Source: Polynucleobacter necessarius (GTDB taxonomy: Bacteria > Pseudomonadota > Gammaproteobacteria > Burkholderiales > Burkholderiaceae). Taken from it: DNA of 32,000 nucleotides. The position numbers and the translations under genes were made by a program. The stretch's first letter is position 1, and each line of letters begins with the position of its first letter. Under the pieces are notes generated by a model that was not told the DNA's origin, made no database searches, and saw only the letters and a list, made by a program, of their open reading frames with translations. Positions 3,082-19,731 of this stretch are shown here, one piece after another. Location: contig NZ_LT606950.1 of the NCBI RefSeq assembly GCF_900095195.1, positions 967,207-999,206 of the forward strand, written 5' to 3'.

Positions 3082-3546
3082 TTACTGAGAATGAACATCA
3101 GCCCAACAATTTGGCGTTTCATATAAACGAATTGCCGAAAGTTCAAGACGTTCACCGAATGCTTTAGCAAAAACGGGTTGCAAAATCGCGAATGCAGCAT
3201 TTGCGAGATTTTCTACGGTGGGCACATGCTCTAGGATGACGGTCTTATGGTTTGGCAAACTTGCCAGAAACGCAACCAAGCCCTCATCTTCTTTAGCCAC
3301 TAAAAACGCATGGTCCCATTGATCCACAACATACTGATTGGTCAGCTTTTTGATGTCGCCAAAATCGAGCACCATGCCGTCATCCGCTTTACCAGGATGA
3401 TCCGCAACCTCACCGGTTAAAGTGACCTCAATTGCATAACGATGTCCATGGAGATGTTTGCATTGGCCGTCGCGATTTGGAATACGGTGCCCAGAGTCGA
3501 ACTCGAGGCGGCGAGTAATGGAGATTGCAGGTTATTTGCTGGTCAT
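3082..3546 (-). pseudogene. queD: 6-carboxy-5,6,7,8-tetrahydropterin synthase QueD with premature stop at codon 5 (no usable start for the conserved body)
   Basis: My translation of the minus strand from 3525 gives ISITRRLEFDSGHRIPNRDGQCKHLHGHRYAIEVTLTGEVADHPGKADDG, joining the tracked ORF at MVLDFGDIKK (3375) in one open frame. There is no ATG, GTG or TTG in that frame between 3375 and 3525. An in-frame ATG at 3546 is followed by ACC AGC AAA TAA (TAA at 3532-3534). Confidence 0.6.
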
Positions 3547-3569
3547 TTGGCGCTTTAATTATTTACTCT

Positions 3570-4225
3570 CTATCGAATACCGATCAGTTTATGCGATTGA
3601 ATGCTTAATCTCCATAACGGGCGTTTTTGGCATAGACTTACGGCTAACTCAGTATTACTTTTAAGATTGGGGCCATCCATTGGCTGCAGGAATCGATTGC
3701 GATAGTCCATCTTCTCAAATCGAGACATCAATTGCTCAACTGAATCATGACCTACTTGAGGAATGACGAGTTTCAGCTCATTTGCTTGAAACACGATTAG
3801 TTCGGATCCCGCTTTATGGCTGACACAAACCCAATCAACCCCCTTGGGGACTTTGATCGTACCGTTTGTTTCAATGGCCACCTCAAATCCTTTTTGATGG
3901 AGTGCATTGATCGGTGGCTCATCCAACTCTGTAATAGCGGCTCACCACCTGTGAAAACAACATAGCGCTGTTGGGGTCCTGCTGAGGTACTTTTTCAAGA
4001 GGCCTCGATCGCATCGGCTAAATCCCCTGCAGTCTCAAATTTGCCACCGCCAGCACCGTCACTACCAACAAAATCAGTATCGCAAAATTGGCATACTGCA
4101 GTTGCTCGATCTTCCTCGCGACCGCTCCAGAGATTGCAGCCACTAAAACGACAAAATACCGCGGCACGTCCAACATGAGCGCCTTCACCTTGCAAGGTGG
4201 GGAAAAGTTCTTTAACGGTATACAT
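3570..4225 (-). pseudogene. queE: 7-carboxy-7-deazaguanine synthase QueE (radical SAM), nonsense plus frameshift
   Basis: The N-terminal part MYTVKELFPTLQGEGAHVGRAAVFCRFSGCNLWSGRE ends at an in-frame TGA (3995-3997). The same frame continues KSTSAGPQQRYVVFTGGEPLLQ. Two surplus nucleotides at 3927-3928 then shift to the frame encoding LDEPPINALHQKGFEVAIETNGT...WRLSIQSHKLIGIR. Confidence 0.85.
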
Positions 4226-4234
4226 AGCAATACA

Positions 4235-4980
4235 CTATTTTAAGCGCATTGCTTGCTTCCAAGAAATTAGCTCCCATTGCCAATAATCCTCCCAGAAGGC
4301 ATTGGACCAAAAGACTCCAGGGGTGATGTAGCGACCACTCCCCCGCGGATAATCCAACGCCCAACCCCTGGCGAGAACCAAACATCTTCCCATCAAGAAT
4401 TTAATATTCGAAAGAGATCATTGCTAATGAAATACGGATTTTCGTTATGAAAATGTAAGGTTTGAAATTTTCCAGCCGGAGAGTCAATTTGCTCTCATCC
4501 AAGAGCAGTCATACTCAAACCCCAATAATAGCTACCGTCGGGATAGCTTGGTACTTGATATTGGGTTTTATAAAACTGGCTCCATCCTGCTTGAAGCTGC
4601 GCCGGCCACAGAGGGATTGCAGGCTGGAATTTTTGGGGAGGACTCCAGTGTGGATCTTGCAGCACAAAACCCCATGGAGATTAGATTTCATCAGGAAGCG
4701 GACCTGATTTAACTCCCGATCCAGTAATTCGGATTTCCGCCCCGACTGAAACAACTTTTTCTGTAACCGTATCAATGATTTCTTGATTGAAAACGTTGCG
4801 AACTTGGTATACCCACTCTTGACCAACGCGGGGAGCACGAACTGTTGGAGGCGACAGGGGTTGCGAAAGTTTTATTCCCTCCGGAAAGGGTTGAGAGGAA
4901 ATACATCCCGTCAGTATGACCGACAGGCTAATTGCCAATAACTTACGCAAATAATTTATTTGAATGAACTCAGCTGCCAT
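4235..4980 (-). pseudogene. Uncharacterised lipoprotein, paralog B, three in-frame stops plus one frameshift
   Basis: ATG at 4980 and signal peptide with lipobox LTGC. In-frame stops are TAA 4681-4683, TGA 4495-4497 and TGA 4393-4395. A frame change at the C5 run 4340-4344 is needed to recover the paralog-like C-terminus YWQWELISWK. It aligns along its length with paralog A (VGQEW.Y, WGFV..DP.W, PLWP, WF.P..GRW). Confidence 0.6.
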
Positions 4981-5582
4981 TGGTAACTGCCTTCGTTAAT
5001 TACCCCACCTATCTGACATTGTATTTGGTAGGGGCCTGATGTCTCGCGCGCCACCCATCTACCAATTTGCGGCGCGAACCAGATAGTTTCTTTACGAGTG
5101 CAGTTGACCTTATTGGCGTCCTCATTCTCATAGTTAATGAATGTTTGGAACTTCAGCGCAATAAATTCACCAGCGAGAACAGTAATCTTTTCCCACCCAT
5201 TAGCGCTCATATATTCTTGCTAACTCAAGAGGCCACAATGGCAATGGAGAATTAAAACTCAATAATTTTGGCCACTGTGGATCCAAGGTAACAAATCCTC
5301 AAGAGGACTGAATCTCACTTGGCAAAGCAATACCATCTTCCGAACGTTCAATCGTAATACTTGAATCCATACTGGCAACGCGCTCGCGAATCACCCCTAA
5401 TGTTTTCCCGCTGAACACATCTTTCTTAATATAGGTCCACTCTTGGCCAACTTGAGGAGCCCGAGCCTTAGGCAAGGGATTGGGTTGAGCAACTGGAGTA
5501 CCTTGCTCATACCCAAGGGGACACCACAGGCAACTGGTGCTAGAGCAGCCGATACGATAAAGGTTCGACGCGTTATATTCAT
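4956..5582 (-). pseudogene. Uncharacterised lipoprotein, paralog A, two frame changes plus one nonsense codon
   Basis: ATG at 5582 preceded by GGGAGG (5587-5592); signal peptide MNITRRTFIVSAALAPVAC. The frame changes shortly after the lipobox (about 5500-5530) to PLPKARAPQVGQEWTYIKKDVFSG. There is an in-frame TGA at 5299-5301. The frame changes again around 5205-5225, with about 20 codons missing relative to paralog B, before ANGWEKITVLAGEF...YQWQLSSFK. Confidence 0.6.
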
Positions 5583-5611
5583 ATAACCTCCCGAATTAAG
5601 CTTTGACTGGA

Positions 5612-6401
5612 TCAATATACCTCAAGCAGATACAACTCTTCATCGGTAAATCCGGCCTGTCTACGAGCAGCCAAATTGAATGGGGCCCGTAACTTTGGAG
5701 CTCGATATTGCCTAACGAGTTCACGGTACGCTGTAATTGGCGATAGATGATTTTTTGTGCATAAGAAATTAAACCAATGATTGCCGATCGCAACATGGCC
5801 AATCTCATCGCGCAGAATAATCTCTAATATTTCTACAGCGGCAATATCTTTTACTTGCTTAAAACGATCGCGAATTGCTGGAACTGCGTCCAACCCTCTC
5901 GCCTCCATTGTTCTGGGCACCAAATCCATTCTGGCAATTACAGAGTCAACCGTTCTCTCTACCATTTCCCATAAACTGTTATGCGCATCAAAATCACCAT
6001 AAGAAAAACCATGGGATTGAAGATAGCCACTCACAAGACTGAAGTAATATGCCTCTTCTTTGGAAACCTGGAGCCAGTCCTCATAATATTACTCGGGCAT
6101 ATCTGGAAAGCGCCAAATCGCATCTAGAGCAAGGTTGATGGCATTAAATTCGATATGAGCAAGCGAGTGCAGTAACGAAGCTCGTGTCCATCTTTCTTCT
6201 TGGAACATCCAGAGGTGGCACCAGTATTGGCTTTTCTGGGCGCCCAGGGAGGCAATGATTTTGAGTAGCTAGAGCCTGAGTACGATTTACGCGAATGCTC
6301 CCTTGATGGTATGCGTCAAATAACTCAAAGACTTGGCTGACCTTAGCTGCAGGTTCAGTAAGCGCTAAAATCTCTAAGGCGGCTTCGCGTAGCTCGGTCA
6401 T
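5612..6401 (-). pseudogene. DUF455 ferritin-like family protein, frameshift plus nonsense
   Basis: The N-terminal ORF (6144-6401) leaves the family frame around 6175-6200. The alternative frame reads RASLLHSLAHIEFNAINLALDAIWRFPDMPE, then TAA (6089-6091), then YYEDWLQVSKEEAYYFSLVSGYLQSHGF, joining ORF 5612-6034 (RDEIGHVAIGNHWF). Confidence 0.7.
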
Positions 6402-10371: not shown

Positions 10372-10824
10372 ATGAGTATCGTCGATAACAAAAAAGCCTT
10401 CTTTGATTATTTTATCGAGGAGCGCTTTGAGGCGGGATTGGTTCTGGAGGGCTGGGAAGTCAAAGCTATCCGTGCTGGTCGCGTGCACATTAAAGAAGCG
10501 TATGTTGTCATACGCAAGGCGGAGCTTTTCCTGATCAGATGCCATATTACCCCCCTACTTTCCGCCTCTACTCACATTGCTCCTGACAGTGTTCGAACCC
10601 GCAAACTGCTTCTCAATGCCATTGAGGTTCGCACGCTGATTGGTAAAGTGGAACAAAAAGGCTACACCCTAGTCCCATTGAATCTGCATTTCTCCAAGGG
10701 AAATGTGAAATGCGAAATTAGTCTAGCTCGTGGCAAGAAACAGCATGACAAGCGCGCTGCCACCAAAGAGCGTGAATGGGAAGTGCAGAAGGGTCGTATC
10801 GCTCGAGGCGACCTGAACGCCTAA
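10372..10824 (+). CDS. smpB: SsrA-binding protein SmpB
   Basis: 150-aa ATG ORF with [25 protein letters not shown] and a basic C-terminal tail; full length. Confidence 0.95.
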
Positions 10825-10937
10825 TCCGCTTCAGTCAGTTTCTTCATAGGCTGTATTGCACCTTTATGGTGCATAACGGCACCAATCTGCTTCAACTCCC
10901 AATTTCAGGAGAACAGAAAGGCTTTAGTTTTATCCAT

Positions 10938-12349
10938 ATGAAACTGCCTTTTGATGAAATGCTAGACGCCGCAGGCAAAGCGCGTCCCAACTACGAAATT
11001 TTTCATACCTGGTTAAAGCAGCAAAGCGATACCCTCATGGGTCTCAAACGGGCTGAAGCAGACCTCATTTTCCGACGAGTGGGCATTACATTCGCGGTCT
11101 ACGGCGATGATCTTGGCTCAGAGCGAACCATACCGTTTGACCAGGTTCCGCGCATCTTTACTACGAAAGAGTGGGCACAACTCGAAGCAGGATTGCGTCA
11201 ACGCGTCAAAGCACTCAATCGCTTTATTTATGACGTGTATCACGAAGAAGAAATCATCAAAGCAGGAATTGTTCCGGCCGAGCAAATTTTTAACAATGTG
11301 CAATATCACCCAGAGATGCGTAACGTTAATGTGCCTCGAGATATCTACGCACAAATTGCAGGGATTGATACTGTGCGAGCAGGCGAAGGTGAGTTTTATG
11401 TCTTAGAGGATAACCTGCGCGTTCCTTCCGGCGTTTCTTACATGGTCGAGGACCGCAAGATGATGATGCGCCTTTTCCAGGACCTCTTTCAAAAATACCG
11501 CGTCGCCACCGTAGAGCACTATCCAGATTTACTACTGGAGTGTCTCAAGTCCGTTAAGCCCGACGATGTTAAGAAACCAAATGTCGTGGTTCTCACACCC
11601 GGCATGTATAACTCCGCATATTTTGAGCACAGCTACCTTGCTAAGCAAATGGGTGTGGAGTTAGTAGGGGGTAAGGACTTGTTTGTCAAAAATGAGCAAG
11701 TCTTTATGCGAACCACTCAGGGCCCAGAACGCGTGGATGTCATCTATCGGCGCGTTGATGATGATTTTTTAGACCCGCTCGCATTTCGCTCAGACTCAAC
11801 TTTAGGTGTAGCAGGGCTCTTAGCAGCACATCGAGCTGGAAATGTAACTTTGGCTAACGCGATTGGTACCGGCATTGCCGATGACAAATCAATCTATCCC
11901 TATGTTCCTGAGATGTTGAGTTTTATCTCGGCGAAAAACCGATCCTTAATAACGTTCCCACCTTCCAATGTCGCAAGCCAGAGGATTTGGCATGCACACT
12001 AGCGAATCTTGAAAAACTGGTTGTTAAATTGACGCATGGTGCTGGCGGATACGGCATGCTAGTCGGCCCCACTTCCACCAAAGCTAAAGTTGAAGAATTT
12101 AGAGTGCACCTCATTGCCAATCCTGATAAGTACATAGCCCAACCCACTTTAGTGCTATCCACCTGCCCTACCTTTGTGGAGTCGGGGATTGCGCCACGCC
12201 ATATTGATTTGCGTCCCTTTGTTCTCTCCGGAAAAACCATCAAGATGGTTCCCGGCGGCCTCACACGAGTTGCTCTTAAAGAGGGTTCGCTAGTGGTGAA
12301 CTCCTCGCAGGGTGGCTGCACAAAAGACACCTGGGTTCTCGAAGCGTAA
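10938..12349 (+). pseudogene. Circularly permuted ATP-grasp type 2 protein (COG2308), single frameshift
   Basis: ATG at 10938 after AGGAG. The frame is good through IADDKSIYPYVPEM, then a 1-nt loss around 11915-11921. The continuation FYLGEKPILNNVPTFQCRKPEDLACTLANLEKLVVK...HGAGGYGMLVG...VVNSSQGG.TKDTWVL is in another frame (tracked ORF 11987-12349). Confidence 0.8.
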
Positions 12350-12363
12350 GAGGAATAAGAAAA

Positions 12364-13119
12364 ATGTTAAGCCGCACTGCCGATTGTCTCTACTGGATGG
12401 CTCGCTACACAGAACGCGCAGAAAATACTGCTCGCATGTTAGTGTCAATCACCAAACCTCGCTCTTACCTCAACCCTCTGACGTCTTAGAGCAAAGTTGG
12501 AAAAAACTGTTGACCATCTCAAAATTAGAGGGCGCATTCTTAAGCAAATATGATGTGATTAATTGTGAAAATGTGTTGGATTTGATGATTTATGAAACGA
12601 GCAATCCGTCCAGCATTGTTTCCTGCCTTTATGCAGCCCGTGAGAATGCCAGAGTGATGCCAGAGTGATTCGTGGAAAGATTACCTCCGAAGTCTGGGAG
12701 ACTCAAAATACAACTTGGCTGGAATTGCAACGCATTTTGCAGACCCGCCACCAATCAGACCAAAGCTGATTGCTTGAGTGGGTGAAGCGCCGTTGCCATT
12801 TATTCCGGGGCGTGATGTACGGAACCATGCTGAAAAATGAATCTTTCTACTTTATTAATGTCGGAACACTACTAGAGCGCGCCGACAACACTGCTCGTAT
12901 CTTGCAGACCTTATTCCATTGGTTTCCGAAGTTAAAAACCAACAATCCAAGGAAATTGAGCGCTTACTCGGAAAACTCAAGGCGAACTTAGATTACTCAG
13001 ACATCGATGAAGTCTTTGCGCAGGGTCTGGAGGAATATATTGAAAACTTCCTTGAGCGCATCAACCATATCGCAGATGAAGTCAGTAGCGCCTACCTGAT
13101 TCCATTGGCAGTAGCATAA
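12364..13119 (+). pseudogene. Alpha-E domain protein (DUF403), multiple lesions
   Basis: ATG at 12364 (MLSRTADCLYWMARYTERAENTAR). Lesions: a 1-nt loss near 12442, an 11-bp tandem duplication at 12648-12669, an in-frame TGA at 12767-12769, and a further frame change near 12900-12960. The total span is only 252 codons, so the middle of the protein appears deleted. The C-terminus LGKLKANLDYSDIDEVF...YLIPLAVA is retained. Confidence 0.75.
12648..12669 (+). repeat. Perfect 11-bp tandem duplication GCCAGAGTGAT x2 inside the alpha-E gene
   Basis: Read directly: 12648-12658 equals 12659-12669. Removing one copy restores ENARVIRGKITSEVWETQNTTWLE in frame. Confidence 0.9.
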
Positions 13120-13135
13120 AAACCGAAAAGAAGAT

Positions 13136-13934
13136 ATGCATTTAAAGATCCGCCATCGCACCGAGTATCGCTACGAAACTCCAGTGCGCTATTCCATTCA
13201 AGAATTGCGCTTGACGCCACCCAGTTACAGCAGGGCAAGACATTGAGCGCTGGAAAATTAGCACCCCAATTAAAGCAAGCAATTCGATTGATACTTTTAA
13301 CAACGTGTGCAGCGTTTTTGTGCAAGAGGCCTCCTACACCTCAATGATGATTGAGGCAGAGGGAGAAGTAATCACGCAGGATGCTTATGAGTACATAGAC
13401 GATGCTAAAGCGGTATCGCCCTATTTTTTACTTCAGCAAACTCATCTAACAGAACCCTCTGAGGCGATGTTGGAATATTTTGCGGATTCGCTACAAAAAA
13501 AGAATTCAATCAATGCCATTTTGAAACTTGCCTCAGCAGTTCAACAATCCATTGAATATGCGCCGGGACAAACAAACTTTGCCACAACTGCTGCTCAGTC
13601 ATTTGCTATGAAATCGGGTGTTTGCCAAGATCATGCCCACATCATGTTGAGCCTATGTAGAGCCACACAAATACCAGCACGGTATGTCAGCGGATACTTC
13701 TTTGCAGAAGAATCCCCCAATCTAGTGAGTCATGCATGGATTGATTTTTGCAGTGATATCGAAAAAGGGGTTTGGGTTAGCGTTGATATTACTCATGCAT
13801 GTTTAATTGACGCGCGGCACATTCGCCTTGCCATCGGTCGCGACTACTACTCTGCGGCGCCTGTCAAAGGTGTGCGTACTAGCGGTGGCGGCGAAGAATT
13901 GACAGCGAATATCTCGATTCAACAGCTTGCCTAG
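13136..13934 (+). pseudogene. Transglutaminase-like cysteine protease family protein, single frameshift
   Basis: ATG at 13136 (MHLKIRHRTEYRYETPVRYSIQELRLTPPS) runs into TGA at 13244-13246. The family sequence continues in another frame from about 13230 (AGQDIERWKISTPIK...DTFNNVCSVF) into tracked ORF 13305-13934, which has the catalytic Cys motif GVCQDHAH and SHAWIDF. Confidence 0.8.
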
Positions 13935-14035
13935 AGCCCTAGGCACCCCCCTCTGGTAGCCCATGGAATATTTCAGGGATAATCTCAGGCAATGATTGCA
14001 TCAGAAGCATAGAAAGCACTTAAGGATTAGGTTAT

Positions 14036-14859
14036 ATGACGTATTGCGTTGGGCTTTGCCTAAAAGATGGTATCGTATTTTTATCGGATACCCGCACGAA
14101 TGCTGGAGTAGACCAAATTGGTACCTTCAGAAAAATGACCTTATTTCAAAAGGACAAAGATCGTTTTTTTGCTTTAATGAGTGCCGGCAACCTGGCTATT
14201 ACTCAGTCCGTTAAGGAAATCCTGTTGCAGGGTCAATCCATCAACGGCAAGAATCTGTGGACCGCTAAAAACTCCTATGAAGCCGCCGTTGTTGTTGGTG
14301 ATGCTATTAAGCAAGTTTACGAACGCGATCATGAGGCTTTAACTAAGGCAGGGCTAGATTTCAATTGCAACATGATTTTGGTGGCCAAGTCAAAGGCGAA
14401 AAACCTCGCCTGTTTAATATTTATTCAGCCGGTAACTTTATTGAAGCTACTCCTGAGACGTGTTACTTCCAAATCGGCGAATCCAAATATGGAAAACCGA
14501 TTCTCGACCGAGTATTAAATTTCTCGACCCCATTAAATTTGGCTACCAAGTGCGTCTTAATCTCCATGGGCTCTACTCTTAAGAGTAATATTTCTGTAGG
14601 GGCTCCACTGGATATGGTGATTTATGAAAAGGATGCGTTAAAGGCCTCTAAGCTTGTCACACTACTTGATGAAGAGAACCCCTACTTTGCCATGATTCAT
14701 CGTCTTTGGGGCGAGAAATTGCGCGAGGCGTTTAACTCTATTGCCGAACCCAGTTGGAGTGGAGCCAATAAGTCTGCTGCCATCTCCATGCCTGCTAAGA
14801 AAATGGGTGGCGTTCCCATTAATCGCCCACCTGTCGCAAAGCAAGCAAATCGCCGATGA
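14036..14859 (+). pseudogene. Proteasome-type protease (COG3484), single frameshift
   Basis: The N-terminus MTYCVGLCLKDGIVFLSDTRTNAG is good through LDFNCNMIL. One G is missing at about 14379-14381 (TTGGTGG where TTGGGTGG is expected). The continuation GGQVKGEKPRLFNIYSAGNFIEATPE is in tracked ORF 14365-14859. Confidence 0.75.
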
Positions 14860-14962: not shown

Positions 14963-17367
14963 TTAGGCGTTTAAGTTTTTGCCCAGCATTTCCCAAGTCT
15001 CAACCACGCTATCAGGATTGAGGGATATTGAAGTAACGCCCTTCTCTACCAACCAACGCGCGAAGTCTGGATGATCTGAAGGCCCCTGACCGCAAATACC
15101 AACGTATTTATTTTGTTTGCGACATGCTTCTATTGAGCGAGCAATCATAAATTCAACTGCTGGATCACGATCATCAAAGTCGATCGCAAGCAACTCCATG
15201 CCCAAGTCACGATCTAGGCCCAGCGTGAGCTGTGTCATATCGTTCGAGCCAATCGAGAAGCCATCGAAATACTCTAGGAACTGGTCTGCCAAAATTGCAT
15301 TTGATGGAATTTCGCACATCATGATGAGGCGCAAGCCATTCACACCGCGCTTGAGACCAAACTTCTCCATCATGGCGATCACGCGCTGAGCCTGAGGAAT
15401 GGTCCGCACAAAAGGCACCATGATCTCGACATTATCTAAGCCCATGTCTTCGCGAACCCGCTTCATTGCAGAACACTCTAATGCGAAAGCTTCACCAAAT
15501 TCTTCCGAAATATAGCGCGAAGCACCGCGGAAGCCCAACATTGGATTTTCTTCATCGGGCTCATAGCGTGAACCATCGATCAACTTCTTATATTCATTCG
15601 ATTTGAAGTCTGATAGACGGACAATGACTGCCTTTGGATAAAAGGCGGCCGCAATAGTAGCAACACCTTCCACCAATTTATCCTCATAAAACTGACGTGG
15701 GCTTGCATAACCACGAGCCACACTTTCTACTGCCCGCTTCAAGTCAGGGTCAATGTTTGGATACTCCAGAACTGCGCGTGGATGAACACCAATGTAATTG
15801 TTAATGATAAATTCCAAGCGAGCCAATCCAACGCCCGCATTTGGGATTTGGCAAAAATCAAAAGCCAACTGCGGATTACCAATATTCATGGTGATCTTGA
15901 CTGGAATCTCAGGTAATACACCACGAGACACCTCGGTTACTTCGGTTTCAATCAAGCCGTCGTAGATATGGCCTTCATCACCCTCAGCACACGAGACTGT
16001 CACCACCATACCGTCTTGCAACTGTTCTGTAGCATCGCCACAACCCACTACGGCTGGCACACCCAATTCCCGAGCAATAATCGCCGCATGACAGGTACGA
16101 CCCCCCGGTTAGTCACAATCGCCGAAGCGCGCTTCATAACAGGCTCCCAGTTCGGGTCCGTCATCTCCGCAACCAACACATCCCCAGGCCGAACCCGATC
16201 CATCTCGCTCGGATCACGAATGATACGAACTGGACCAGCGCCAATCTTTTGACCAATCGCACGGCCTTTTGCTAGAACCTTTGAGCCACCTTTTAACTTG
16301 TAGCGCATCTCCACCTGACCAGCCGCCTGACTCTTTACGGTCTCAGGGCGAGCCTGGAGGATATAAATACGACCATCTTGACCATCTTTACCCCACTCGA
16401 TGTCCATTGGACGGCCATAGTGTTTTTCAATGATGACCGCATATTTGGCTAACTCAGCTATGTCGGCATCTTTTAATGAGAAACGATTACGTTTCTCAGG
16501 AGATACATCCACAGTTTGCACTTTCTCAGCAGATCCTTTGGGTGCAAATTGCATTTGAATTAACTTAGAGCCAAGCGCACGACGAATGATAGCTTTTTTG
16601 CCTTGGGCTAAAGTGGTCTTGAATACATAAAACTCATCAGGGTTCACGGCTCCTTGCACTACCGTCTCGCCCAATCCATAGCTCGACGTAATGAAAACCA
16701 CATCTTCAAATCCAGATTCAGTATCCAGAGTGAACATCACACCAGCAGCGCCCAAATCAGAACGCACCATCCGCTGAATACCAGCAGAAAGTGCTAATTC
16801 AGCATGGGCAAAGCCTTTATGAACACGATACGAAATGGCTCGATCGTTATACAAAGAAGCAAATACTTCACGAATTTTCTTTAAAACGTCTTCAATACCT
16901 TCAACATTCAGAAAAGTCTCTTGTTGACCAGCAAAAGAGGCGTCTGGGAGATCCTCTGCAGTAGCAGATGAACGTACCGCAAAAGATCCTTTGCCGGAAT
17001 CGTCCAACGTTGCAAATGCTTTGCGAATCTCTTCCTCAAGTCTCGGTTGAAATGGAGCAGTTTCAATCCAATTGCGAATCTCGGCGCCCGCCTCCGCTAG
17101 AGCACGCACATCATCAATATTGAGACCTTCTAAACGTTGTTGAATGCGTTCAGTCAAATTGTTATGCTTTAAGAAATCCCGAAAGGCTAATGCGGTGGTA
17201 GCAAAACCTGTTGGCACGCGAACCCCAGTAGAGGCCAACTAGGAAATCATCTCGCCTAAAGATGCATTTTTACCGCCGACAGATTCCACATCTGTCATGC
17301 GAAGTTGCTCAAAAGGCAATACATAGGCATTTGCCACACTGCTGCTTTGTTGCTGTTGATTGGGCAT
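14963..17367 (-). pseudogene. ppsA: Phosphoenolpyruvate synthase, nonsense plus homopolymer frameshift
   Basis: ATG at 17367 ([42 protein letters not shown]), then an in-frame TAG at 17239-17241, then [16 protein letters not shown]. At the C6 run 16101-16106 (G6 on the coding strand) one G is missing, so TNRG is followed by VVPVMRR... and a stop instead of [22 protein letters not shown]. The correct continuation is tracked ORF 14963-16066. Confidence 0.9.
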
Positions 17368-17473
17368 AAAATACTCTCTAAAGATAAGGAAACTGGTATT
17401 GCGGTCGCCCAAAATGCGACTTCATTTAATATGATCCTATTGTATTGCTGACCCCCTCTTTTAGGCCAAACTG

Positions 17474-18301
17474 ATGTCCACCGAATCCCGCATTGTTTTT
17501 ATCGTCTCAGACGGTACTGGCATTACCGCTGAGAACTTTAGCCAGTCGATTTTGGCGCAATTTGAGGCCAGTTTTAAGCACATCCGCATTCCCTTTGTGG
17601 ATAGCTTCGATAAGGCCCATGATGCCGTTAAGAGCATTAATCAAGCGGCAAGCAAGTATGACTACAGCCAATCGTTTTCACTACTCTGGTGAATTTTGAG
17701 CTCAATTCGATCGTAGCCAAAGCAAATGGTCTGATCTTGGACATGTTCCAAACGTTCGTCACTCCTCTTGAAGAAGCCTTGGGCATGAAATCAACCCATG
17801 CCATGAACCGTCTGCACCACAACGCTGATACCGAAGCCTATAAAAACCGTATCGAAGCGATTAACTACTCCCTCGCCCATGATGATGGGCAGTCGAATCA
17901 AAACCTGGCTGAAGCCGATGTCATTTTGGTGGGCATCTCACGTGTCGGCAAAACGCCAACAAGTTTGTACTTGGCCATGGCAATATGGTCTGAAGGCTGC
18001 AAACTACCCCCTCATTCCAGAGGATTTTGAACGTGGTCAACTCCCTAAGGACTTAATTCCATTTCGCCAAAAAATCTTTGGCCTCATGATTGATGCGGAG
18101 CGTTTATCCGAAATTCGAAATGAACGCTGGCCAGGGAGTAATTACGCCAAACTCGAGAACTGTCGTTATGAAATTAATGAAGCGACGGCGATGATGAAAA
18201 AACAGTCGATTCCTTGGGTACTGACGACTAGCAAATCGATTGAAGAAATCGCTACAACAGTTTTACAAGCCATCAAATCCGATAAAACGATCTTAGGCTA
18301 G
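17474..18301 (+). pseudogene. ppsR: PEP synthase regulatory protein (bifunctional kinase/pyrophosphorylase, DUF299), two frameshifts
   Basis: The sequence occupies three frames. MSTESRIVFIVSDGTGITAENF... changes frame around 17655-17667. [14 protein letters not shown]...[17 protein letters not shown] changes frame through an extra G at 17979/17980. The last segment is [19 protein letters not shown]...SIEEIATTVLQAI. Its TAG stop (18299-18301) overlaps the convergent neighbour's stop in a CTAG. Confidence 0.85.
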
Positions 18302-19149: not shown

Positions 19150-19731
19150 TTATTTCGCAGCTGACTCGAGAACCTTGCGCACCGGTGAAAAACTTCTGCG
19201 ATGTTGATCGTAAGCGCCATATTGCTTTAAGGCTGCCAAGTGTGCTTCAGTAGGATGGCCCATTTGCTGAGCAAAACCGTATTCAGGATGACGCTCATGC
19301 AGAATTTGCACGCGTAACCTTAGCCAGAATGGACGCTGCTGAGATAGCTGGCTCCTTTGCATCGCCCTTCACGATAGCTTCGGCGGCAATAGGTAGTTCT
19401 GGGCAACGATTGCCATCGATTAATACCTTATCGGGCATTGCACCTAAACGTGTTGATAAATCCTCTACGGCACGACGCATTGCTAACATGGTTGCCTGCA
19501 AAATATTGATTGCATCAATCTCCGATGAACTAGCCTCACCAATTCCCCAGGCCTTCGCCTTTTCAATGATCTGCTCATACAAAAATTCGCGCTTGGCAGG
19601 CGTTAATTTCTTAGAATCTTTCAGACCCTCAATTGGCTGGTTTGGATCAAGAACTACCGCCCCCGCTACTACAGAACCGACAAGGGACCACGCCCGGCCT
19701 CATCCACGCCACAAATCCAAATAATGCTCAT
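19150..19731 (-). pseudogene. rnhB: Ribonuclease HII, two frame-disrupting lesions
   Basis: ATG at 19731, in an ATGA overlap with the lpxB stop. [17 protein letters not shown] is followed by a 1-nt loss at about 19678-19681 and stops TAG TAG at 19666-19671. The frame-shifted continuation is [39 protein letters not shown]...[10 protein letters not shown] short out-of-frame deletion around 19305-19318 comes before [20 protein letters not shown]. The usual HKGY motif reads QMGH. Confidence 0.85.

Follow-up and report, generated by a model that had tools for sequence, protein, structure and literature searches.

Introduction

For the Anbu operon, crystal structures of Anbu have been published and its proteins have been assayed biochemically (PMC5666114, Fuchs et al. 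2017; PMC6376114, Piasecka et al. 2018). Its predicted ancestral function in the literature is an ATP-dependent peptide/amide ligation carried out by the ATP-grasp protein together with Alpha-E, and the transglutaminase-like protein and the Ntn-hydrolase Anbu are cast, also by prediction, as processing or peptidase components. Peptidase activity of intact Anbu proteins was not seen in vitro (PMC6376114), the operon is non-essential (PMC5666114), and Anbu is reportedly induced under nitrogen starvation in Pseudomonas. For the period from 2018 onward, our search of the literature on Anbu function found a bioinformatic survey alone (PMC8665760). An earlier note on this DNA had described the module as devoid of experimental characterisation; this is right for its physiological role but overlooks the published structures and assays.

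As for the genome, about 18% pseudogenisation with 269 pseudogenes is given for P. necessarius in PMC5632650, and the free-living strain of highest ANI to the symbiont STIR1 is MWH-JaK3 (PMC5018217). The locus described here lies in a window of 32,000 nucleotides (the whole stretch of DNA that was analysed) and represents a known operon caught in a known process, massive pseudogenisation in symbiotic Polynucleobacter being already documented.

Results

Positions 10938-14859 carry, in this order on the plus strand, a circularly permuted ATP-grasp gene, Alpha-E, a bacterial transglutaminase-like gene and Anbu, a proteasome homologue (Table 1). The two halves of ATP-grasp, the operon's gene 1, match the Pfam models CP_ATPgrasp_1/2 (PF14403/PF04174; E = 6e-121 and 1.7e-27). 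Directly 3' of it, four Alpha-E fragments match PF04168 (Pfam, E from 4e-9 to 4e-16) and span profile positions 1-172 and 241-294, and gene 3 matches Bact_transglu_N (PF08379, E = 1.7e-9) and Transglut_core (PF01841, E = 1.6e-18) in Pfam. For the Anbu pseudogene, no match above cut-off was obtained in Pfam or NCBIfam. Membership in the Anbu family rests on comparison with the PDB, because the Pfam Proteasome model stays below its cut-off with an intact Anbu orthologue (20.5 versus 22.4 bits) and NCBIfam assigns no family to any of the four proteins, broken or intact. Once frame-repaired, Anbu aligns end to end with its crystallised counterparts (phmmer; 5loy, E = 3.8e-80; 5nyw, E = 3e-74), and its N-terminal half alone matches the PDB Anbu structures with an E-value of 1e-27 (phmmer). 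The catalytic residues listed in PMC6376114, Thr1, Asp17 and Lys32, are all retained (M-T-YCVG..., SD-T-R and FRK-M, aligned with 5loy and 5nyw). The operon is flanked by smpB and ppsA, and its flanks hold no AAA+ gene. The family placement and conserved order that the earlier note had proposed from the reading frames are thus borne out by Pfam for genes 1 to 3 and by the PDB Anbu structures for gene 4. The locus at 10938-14859 is the published Anbu operon with all four of its members decayed.

When the operon was compared with that of free-living Polynucleobacter, as the note had suggested, the four genes were found intact there, with their order and their smpB...ppsA surroundings unchanged (L002-L010, L014 and L017). 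Base-by-base alignment with nine intact orthologous Polynucleobacter operons located seven lesions in the module, four in Alpha-E and one in each of ATP-grasp, transglutaminase and Anbu, and confirmed that every gene has a lesion of its own. The positions first read from the window itself compare with this map as follows: the 1-nt loss placed at 11915-11921 in ATP-grasp falls between 11915 and 11916, the at least four lesions expected in Alpha-E became four, the transglutaminase frameshift is a +1 nt event inside precisely the interval 13215-13232, and the 1-nt loss placed at 14379-14381 in Anbu maps to the T-run 14376-14379.

Table 1. Features of the decayed operon and of the adjacent pps genes (window coordinates)
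Feature	Position	Strand	Evidence and remarks
ATP-grasp pseudogene (type-2, Anbu-operon amidoligase)	10938..12349	+	Pfam, both halves; tblastn frames 10938-11960 and 11921-12343
ATP-grasp 1-nt deletion, codon 327 (A lost; ATG ATT -> ATG TT)	11915..11916	+	Nine-orthologue alignment
Alpha-E pseudogene	12364..13119	+	PF04168 on four fragments; four tblastn HSPs in three frames
Alpha-E lesion 1: 1-nt deletion, codon 27 (GAT -> G-T)	12442..12443	+	Orthologue alignment
Alpha-E lesion 2: 11-nt tandem duplication, ATGCCAGAGTG x2	12646..12667	+	Single copy in all orthologues
Alpha-E lesion 3: in-frame TGA for Arg, codon 132	12767..12769	+	Orthologue alignment
Alpha-E lesion 4: junction of a 232-244-nt deletion, about codons 178-259 gone	12903..12910	+	Orthologue alignment
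Transglutaminase-like pseudogene	13136..13934	+	PF08379 at 13136-13219, PF01841 at 13305-13934; tblastn in two frames
Transglutaminase +1-nt insertion interval, frameshift after codon 28	13215..13232	+	Orthologue alignment
Anbu pseudogene (proteasome-beta/HslV homologue, Ntn-hydrolase), TGA at 14857-14859	14036..14859	+	phmmer against PDB
Anbu 1-nt deletion in short T-run, codon 114	14376..14379	+	Orthologues read ATCTTT or ATTTTT
ppsA (PEP synthase) pseudogene, directly downstream of the module	14963..17367	-	tblastn/alignment context
ppsR (PEP synthase regulator) pseudogene	17474..18301	+	Two frameshifts, near 17650 and 17979

The ATP-grasp gene starts with ATG at 10938, ends with its original TAA (12347-12349; orthologues of 470 aa) and shows 93-95% identity to intact proteins of Polynucleobacter; its shifted frame terminates at a TAG (12000-12002). 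In Alpha-E, 756 nt are left, read successively in frames 1, 3, 2 and 1 (orthologues of 325-335 aa), and lesion 4 appears in tblastn as a jump from residue 189 to residue 260. The transglutaminase orthologues have 265 aa. The motifs of this protein presumed to hold the Cys/His/Asp triad show no replacement among the invariant residues scored; the invariant residues replaced are P120Q, S177T and G249S. The shifted frame of Anbu terminates at 14516-14518. Most in-frame stops flagged in the genes of relatives proved to be the natural stop codon at the end of the alignment.

Since three of the four 1-nt indels of the module (ATP-grasp, Alpha-E and transglutaminase) lie outside homopolymers, and multi-nucleotide events and stop codons are not base-calling slips, these lesions are real. 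Sequencing or assembly errors in truly intact genes could be suspected from the fact that three genes are broken by one 1-nt indel alone, which in Anbu falls in a short T-run. Such spurious frameshifts are most improbable given those same non-homopolymer sites, the 11-nt duplication, nonsense codon and >230-nt deletion that Alpha-E accumulates, the nonsense codons and multi-nucleotide indels of neighbouring genes, and the absence of such lesions from the essential genes of the window. We give even less credence to genes that would still work, be it as split proteins or by recoding, whether through transcriptional slippage or through programmed frameshifting. The catalytic residues kept in Anbu, the lack of replacements in the presumed triad motifs of the transglutaminase and the overall conservation of the amino acid sequences would fit this possibility, but recent inactivation explains conservation equally well, Alpha-E is interrupted by an in-frame stop and is about 80 codons short, and one operon would demand four different recoding events. 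Rescue by slippage generally requires a long homopolymer, and none of the lesions lies within one. Recoding by homopolymer slippage was rejected on this basis.

Decay is not confined to the module. In the syntenic stretch of the window, 11 of the 22 ancestral genes are pseudogenes and two are absent; besides the module, the dead genes include its unrelated neighbours ppsA, ppsR, rnhB, queD and queE, together with a DUF455 fragment and two genes for hypothetical proteins. In ppsA, codon 43 reads TAG (17241-17239), and the frame is shifted by -1 at about 16105. Essential genes of the window are intact, among them guaA/B, smpB, lpxA/B/D, fabZ, bamA, rseP and dxr. Indels and stops initially seen in rnfH, SpoU and lpxB were compensating alignment artefacts, as the list of open reading frames gives essentially full-length open frames for these genes. 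Against such a local background, four adjacent dead genes are no excess.

Invariant residues are replaced at 23 of 707 sites in the module (3.3%) and at 18 of 603 in intact neighbours (3.0%; P = 0.87), and the dN ratio (window versus free-living over free-living versus free-living) ranges from 1.35 to 1.66 in the module and from 1.09 to 1.84 in intact neighbours, these tests being weak for short neutral drift with dS to the nearest available relatives saturated (pS 0.6-0.8). Within this saturation, no raised amino acid change at conserved residues was detected in the four genes compared with their intact neighbours. Amino acid change that is not faster than in the neighbours argues that the four genes were inactivated recently. 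Exact look-up of two fragment products encoded in the window gave no match, nor did exact patterns across the 11-nt duplication and across the ATP-grasp frameshift in metagenome contigs; the genome-contig scan yielded no relative above 95% amino acid identity and the protein search no second strain.

The uneven spread of the lesions raises the question of their order. The earlier note held that Alpha-E died first and that its partners then drifted, i.e. that ATP-grasp, transglutaminase and Anbu became useless after the loss of Alpha-E and took one lesion each. Four of seven lesions do fall in a gene that makes up 24% of the module length, Alpha-E is paired behind ATP-grasp in 64 of 66 loci, which makes co-dependence very probable, and in L013, a MAG of a free-living Polynucleobacter, Alpha-E is interrupted by a single in-frame TAA with its three partner genes intact. 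However, the probability of at least four lesions out of seven in Alpha-E is 0.063 and rises to 0.19 when post-hoc choice of the gene is allowed for (0.074 conditional on at least one lesion in every gene), so that the excess is not significant. Neither do substitutions single out Alpha-E: invariant residues are replaced at 5 of 134 sites compared with 18 of 573 in its three partners (P = 0.79), and its relative dN of 1.38 is not above the 1.66 of ATP-grasp. Moreover, the unrelated ppsA and ppsR, with two lesions each, decayed alike and a trigger internal to the module is unneeded. The priority of Alpha-E is therefore not upheld by lesion counts or by substitutions, and a domino-like decay starting from it appears doubtful. 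As a separate observation, the clustering of four of the seven lesions in Alpha-E is a borderline case (P 0.06-0.19) that uniform random decay does not explain in full.

Joint inactivation had also been put forward as indirect evidence that the four genes form one functional unit. This argument is not supported: the run of dead genes continues past the module into the next two genes, ppsA and ppsR, and where every second ancestral gene of the neighbourhood is inactive, losing four together does not mark them out as a functional unit. The dispensability of the module in this lineage, which the note had also stated, is supported. We also surveyed 66 betaproteobacterial loci having enough flanking DNA (Alpha-E threshold 1e-8). 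All four genes are present in 41 of them; Anbu is missing from ten, ten have ATP-grasp and Alpha-E alone, three are without an adjacent transglutaminase and two without an Alpha-E match. The four genes are therefore not an obligate unit, and the ATP-grasp/Alpha-E pair alone (Alpha-E following ATP-grasp in 64 loci) is nearly invariable. Relatives that routinely lose single members, which the note had named as speaking against its view, are thus found in part.

Discussion

The P. necessarius contig has 1.55 Mb, which is reduced compared with the 2.0-2.3 Mb of free-living strains, and a G+C content of about 46%; the nearest free-living relative is P. yangtzensis MWH-JaK3, with 95% amino acid identity, the strain that is also closest to STIR1 by ANI. 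No rRNA gene lies in the window. Being small, rich in pseudogenes and close to a free-living relative, this genome looks like that of the obligate Polynucleobacter symbiont type, and a symbiotic lifestyle is presumably indicated by the combination of similarity, reduced size and pseudogene load.

Taken together, our results very probably reflect the recent inactivation of a known Anbu operon in a Polynucleobacter genome under genome-wide reductive decay. A shift to host-restricted life would have relaxed purifying selection on many accessory functions at roughly one time. Lesions of several kinds (small indels, duplication, nonsense mutation, deletion) would then have gathered at random in every gene that was no longer needed, the Anbu operon as well as unrelated neighbours, and the locus is very probably without function now. 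Relaxed selection would be the likely cause. Alternatively, the module could have been harmful inside the host, for instance through a tagging/proteolysis activity, and selected against. All four genes are hit, and a 1.34-Mb Oxalobacteraceae chromosome (L036) keeps all four genes intact, showing that genome reduction alone does not automatically entail loss. Adaptive loss is nevertheless very unlikely, since nothing sets the locus apart from neighbouring genes that decay neutrally and a single lesion in the first gene or promoter would have sufficed.

Under recent neutral decay, purifying selection probably acted on the module as usual up to a short time before the host transition, which fits a role in free-living stress or nutrient limitation. 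A bolder and rather improbable scenario combines a decay that started at Alpha-E, as the linchpin partner of ATP-grasp, with the loss of the module as a recurrent early step when Polynucleobacter turns intracellular. If it were true, the lone nonsense codon in Alpha-E of L013 would show this first step under way, and a recurrent loss on going intracellular would link the function of the module to stresses of free life, for example starvation for nutrients or nitrogen. The Anbu gene neighbourhood was already the ground for regarding the four genes as a unit. To this, the locus adds one data point, namely that the module is presumably dispensable within a eukaryotic host cell. It says little on how the four genes cooperate, its decay being ordinary genome decay, and it could become useful only if several strains from independent symbiont lineages were compared.

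Among the papers available, we found no published mention of the decay of the P. necessarius Anbu operon. The process itself resembles the one reported for P. necessarius, an obligate endosymbiont of Euplotes with a pseudogene-rich genome (Boscaro et al. 2013, cited by PMC5018217, PMC5632650 and PMC4285135). Contig size, G+C content, the nearest free-living strain and the mode of decay are common to the window's genome and P. necessarius, the decay showing many frameshifted or nonsense genes and no involvement of mobile elements. In the domino effect of endosymbionts (e.g. Blattabacterium, PMC8382890), selection on a pathway is relaxed once one of its members is lost, which is the idea behind the note's order of events; unlike this, relaxation here reaches unrelated neighbour genes, and the lesions give no order of loss. 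Finally, the Anbu operon (Valas & Bourne 2008; Iyer et al. 2009; PMC5666114; PMC6376114) comprises these four families in an identical order. The present locus has the same architecture and differs in that all of its genes are pseudogenes.

Results

On the plus strand, positions 10938-14859 carry the remnants of four co-directional genes that together are the Anbu operon, whose conserved order is ATP-grasp, Alpha-E, transglutaminase-like and Anbu (PMC6376114, PMC5666114). In Pfam, the first two ORF fragments matched the circularly permuted ATP-grasp (PF04174/PF14403; E 6e-121, and 1.7e-27 for the C-terminal piece), four small fragments matched Alpha-E (PF04168), and the third gene matched Bact_transglu_N and Transglut_core. 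The fourth gene gave nothing above cut-off in Pfam or NCBIfam; its N-terminal half matched crystallised Anbu proteins (E 1e-27) and, after a one-base frame repair, the protein aligned end to end with 5loy (E 3.8e-80) and 5nyw (E 3e-74), retaining Thr1, Asp17 and Lys32 as candidate catalytic residues. A mechanically called ORF at 10776-12002 (408 aa, database entry P0001) was rejected as a gene-calling artefact of the pseudogene; it takes in 162 extra nucleotides before the true ATG (10938) and shares sequence with the end of smpB.

Intact 470-aa ATP-grasp orthologues were found in Polynucleobacter by protein search (93-95% identity). The reference locus L002 is fully syntenic with the window (...guaA, guaB, rnfH, ratA, smpB, ATP-grasp, Alpha-E, transglutaminase, Anbu, ppsA, ppsR, SpoU methylase, rnhB, lpxB, lpxA), and a scan of species-representative genomes yielded eight further intact Polynucleobacter operons, the closest in P. 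yangtzensis MWH-JaK3 (95% aa). Base-level alignment with the intact operons placed the module lesions listed in the table. Since multi-base events occur and only the Anbu indel, among module indels, lies in a short homopolymer, a sequencing artefact is very unlikely to be their cause. The earlier note had named the same four families and reported a separate lesion in each gene: Pfam (three genes) and the Anbu structures (the fourth) bear out the former, and the base-level alignments the latter, with coordinates agreeing within a few bases.

Lesions of the module and of neighbouring genes (window positions)
Feature	Position	Strand	Detail
ATP-grasp, one A deleted	11915/11916	+	ATG ATT to ATG TT
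Alpha-E, one base deleted	near 12442/12443	+	
Alpha-E, 11-nt tandem duplication	12646-12667	+	ATGCCAGAGTG x2
Alpha-E, Arg codon to TGA	12767-12769	+	
Alpha-E, 232-244-nt deletion	junction near 12903-12910	+	
Transglutaminase, one base added	within 13215-13232	+	
Anbu, one T deleted from run	14376-14379	+	
ppsA (PEP synthase) pseudogene			directly downstream of module; TAG at codon 43 (17241-17239), -1 frameshift near 16105
ppsR (PEP synthase regulator) pseudogene			frameshifts near 17650 and 17979
rnhB (RNase HII)	19153-19731	-	several frameshifts; lies between intact SpoU methylase and lpxB
queD and queE, queuosine-precursor pseudogenes	3094-4225	-	
queD	3534	-	TAA stop at codon 5
queE		-	+2 insertion at 3930, TGA at 3997
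Two paralogous hypothetical genes and DUF455 remnant	4256-6034	-	
DUF455 gene	5612-6034	-	C-terminal half alone left

Comparison of each L002 gene with the window, its ORFs and Pfam revealed that decay extends beyond the module into neighbouring genes. Conversion of pyruvate by PEP synthase has apparently been lost; ppsA and ppsR together span 14963-18301. Damage to rnhB comprises a -1 shift at codon 18, an 11-nt loss around codons 142-145 and more indels toward the 3' end, and the two hypothetical paralogues, which in L002 encode 245 and 232 aa, carry 4-10 lesions each. The glycosyltransferase and polysaccharide deacetylase of L002 are missing from the corresponding position. Frames remain open for ldcA, a deaminase, guaA, guaB, rnfH, ratA, smpB, SpoU, lpxB and lpxA, as well as for fabZ, lpxD, skp, bamA, rseP, dxr and genes beyond. 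Overall, 11 of the 22 ancestral genes in the syntenic stretch are pseudogenes and two are missing.

Codon alignments, in which the window was compared with six to nine free-living relatives, covered the four module genes, four intact neighbours and ppsA. Nei-Gojobori dN ratios (window versus free-living over among free-living) were 1.35-1.66 for the module and 1.09-1.84 for intact neighbours, and residues invariant in all relatives had changed at similar rates (23/707 versus 18/603, P = 0.87). No drift beyond the disabling lesions was visible in either measure, although synonymous sites are saturated (pS 0.6-0.8), which leaves low power to detect a short neutral phase.

Module composition was surveyed in 66 betaproteobacterial loci in which 5 kb or more of downstream sequence followed the ATP-grasp gene. 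All four genes are adjacent in 41; ten lack Anbu only, ten hold ATP-grasp and Alpha-E only, three have ATP-grasp, Alpha-E and Anbu without an adjacent transglutaminase, and two have no Alpha-E match at threshold. ATP-grasp and Alpha-E thus form a nearly invariable core, with transglutaminase and Anbu optional; gene loss may not explain every incomplete locus, some being possible paralogous systems. Single-gene lesions within an otherwise intact operon are rare, occurring in 2 of 80 loci, each from a MAG. In the free-living Polynucleobacter MAG_MBR_H125.56 (L013:7417-8391), Alpha-E has a lone in-frame TAA at codon 230 next to intact ATP-grasp, transglutaminase and Anbu genes, which may be an authentic first step of decay or an error in the MAG consensus. 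In the other (L015:2801-3512; ATP-grasp 83% aa versus the window), transglutaminase lies in two frames with ~30 codons missing, and the three other genes are apparently complete.

Discussion

Because dN and invariant-residue change match those of intact neighbours, the module was under ordinary purifying selection through almost all of the divergence, and its death was recent. It had been proposed that Alpha-E died first. This gene does hold four of the seven module lesions in 24% of the length, but the excess is borderline (P = 0.063 on lesion counts alone, 0.074 given at least one lesion in every gene, and 0.19 after correction for after-the-fact gene choice), and its invariant residues changed no faster than those of the other three genes (5/134 versus 18/573, P = 0.79). 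The order is possible, not demonstrated, and has no support beyond what general genome decay explains.

The same note read the joint inactivation as a sign that the four genes work as one functional unit. It has no support beyond what general decay accounts for: half of the ancestral genes in the syntenic stretch are dead, and the run holding the module counts six genes, not four, as it continues into ppsA and ppsR. At a genome-wide pseudogene fraction of ~0.16, chance alone would give about one run of four dead genes, even if genes died independently, and the window alone contains two runs of at least four. In other genomes Anbu or an adjacent transglutaminase may be absent, which would speak against such a unit where it reflects loss; single-gene lesions are rare. 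The proposed dispensability of the module in this lineage holds.

The nearest relative, the G+C content (~46%), the 1.55-Mb source contig and the reported pseudogene load fit the obligate Euplotes endosymbiont P. necessarius or a close relative. Among free-living strains, P. yangtzensis MWH-JaK3 also has the highest ANI to symbiont STIR1 (PMC5018217), and ~18% pseudogenes (269) are reported for the endosymbiont (PMC5632650). In the strongly reduced genome of Oxalobacteraceae bacterium GE-M3 (OZ239425.1, 1.34-Mb chromosome), each of the four Anbu-operon genes is retained with full coverage, so a small genome is not by itself a predictor of module loss.

Most likely, host restriction would have relaxed selection on accessory functions, after which small indels, a duplication, a nonsense mutation and a deletion would have built up at random. 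The locus is without function today. The ancestral function is a prediction only: ATP-dependent ligation of amides or peptides by a system that also has peptidase-like components. In published experiments, the ATP-grasp protein hydrolyses ATP, structures of Anbu were obtained, peptidase activity was undetectable and the four proteins form no stable complex; the operon is described as non-essential, and induction under nitrogen starvation is reported (PMC6376114, PMC5666114). Plausibly, such a system would be useless in a stable, nutrient-rich intracellular niche, as would the neighbouring PEP synthase and its regulator. The Anbu operon itself is already known, and its decay here is a known process.
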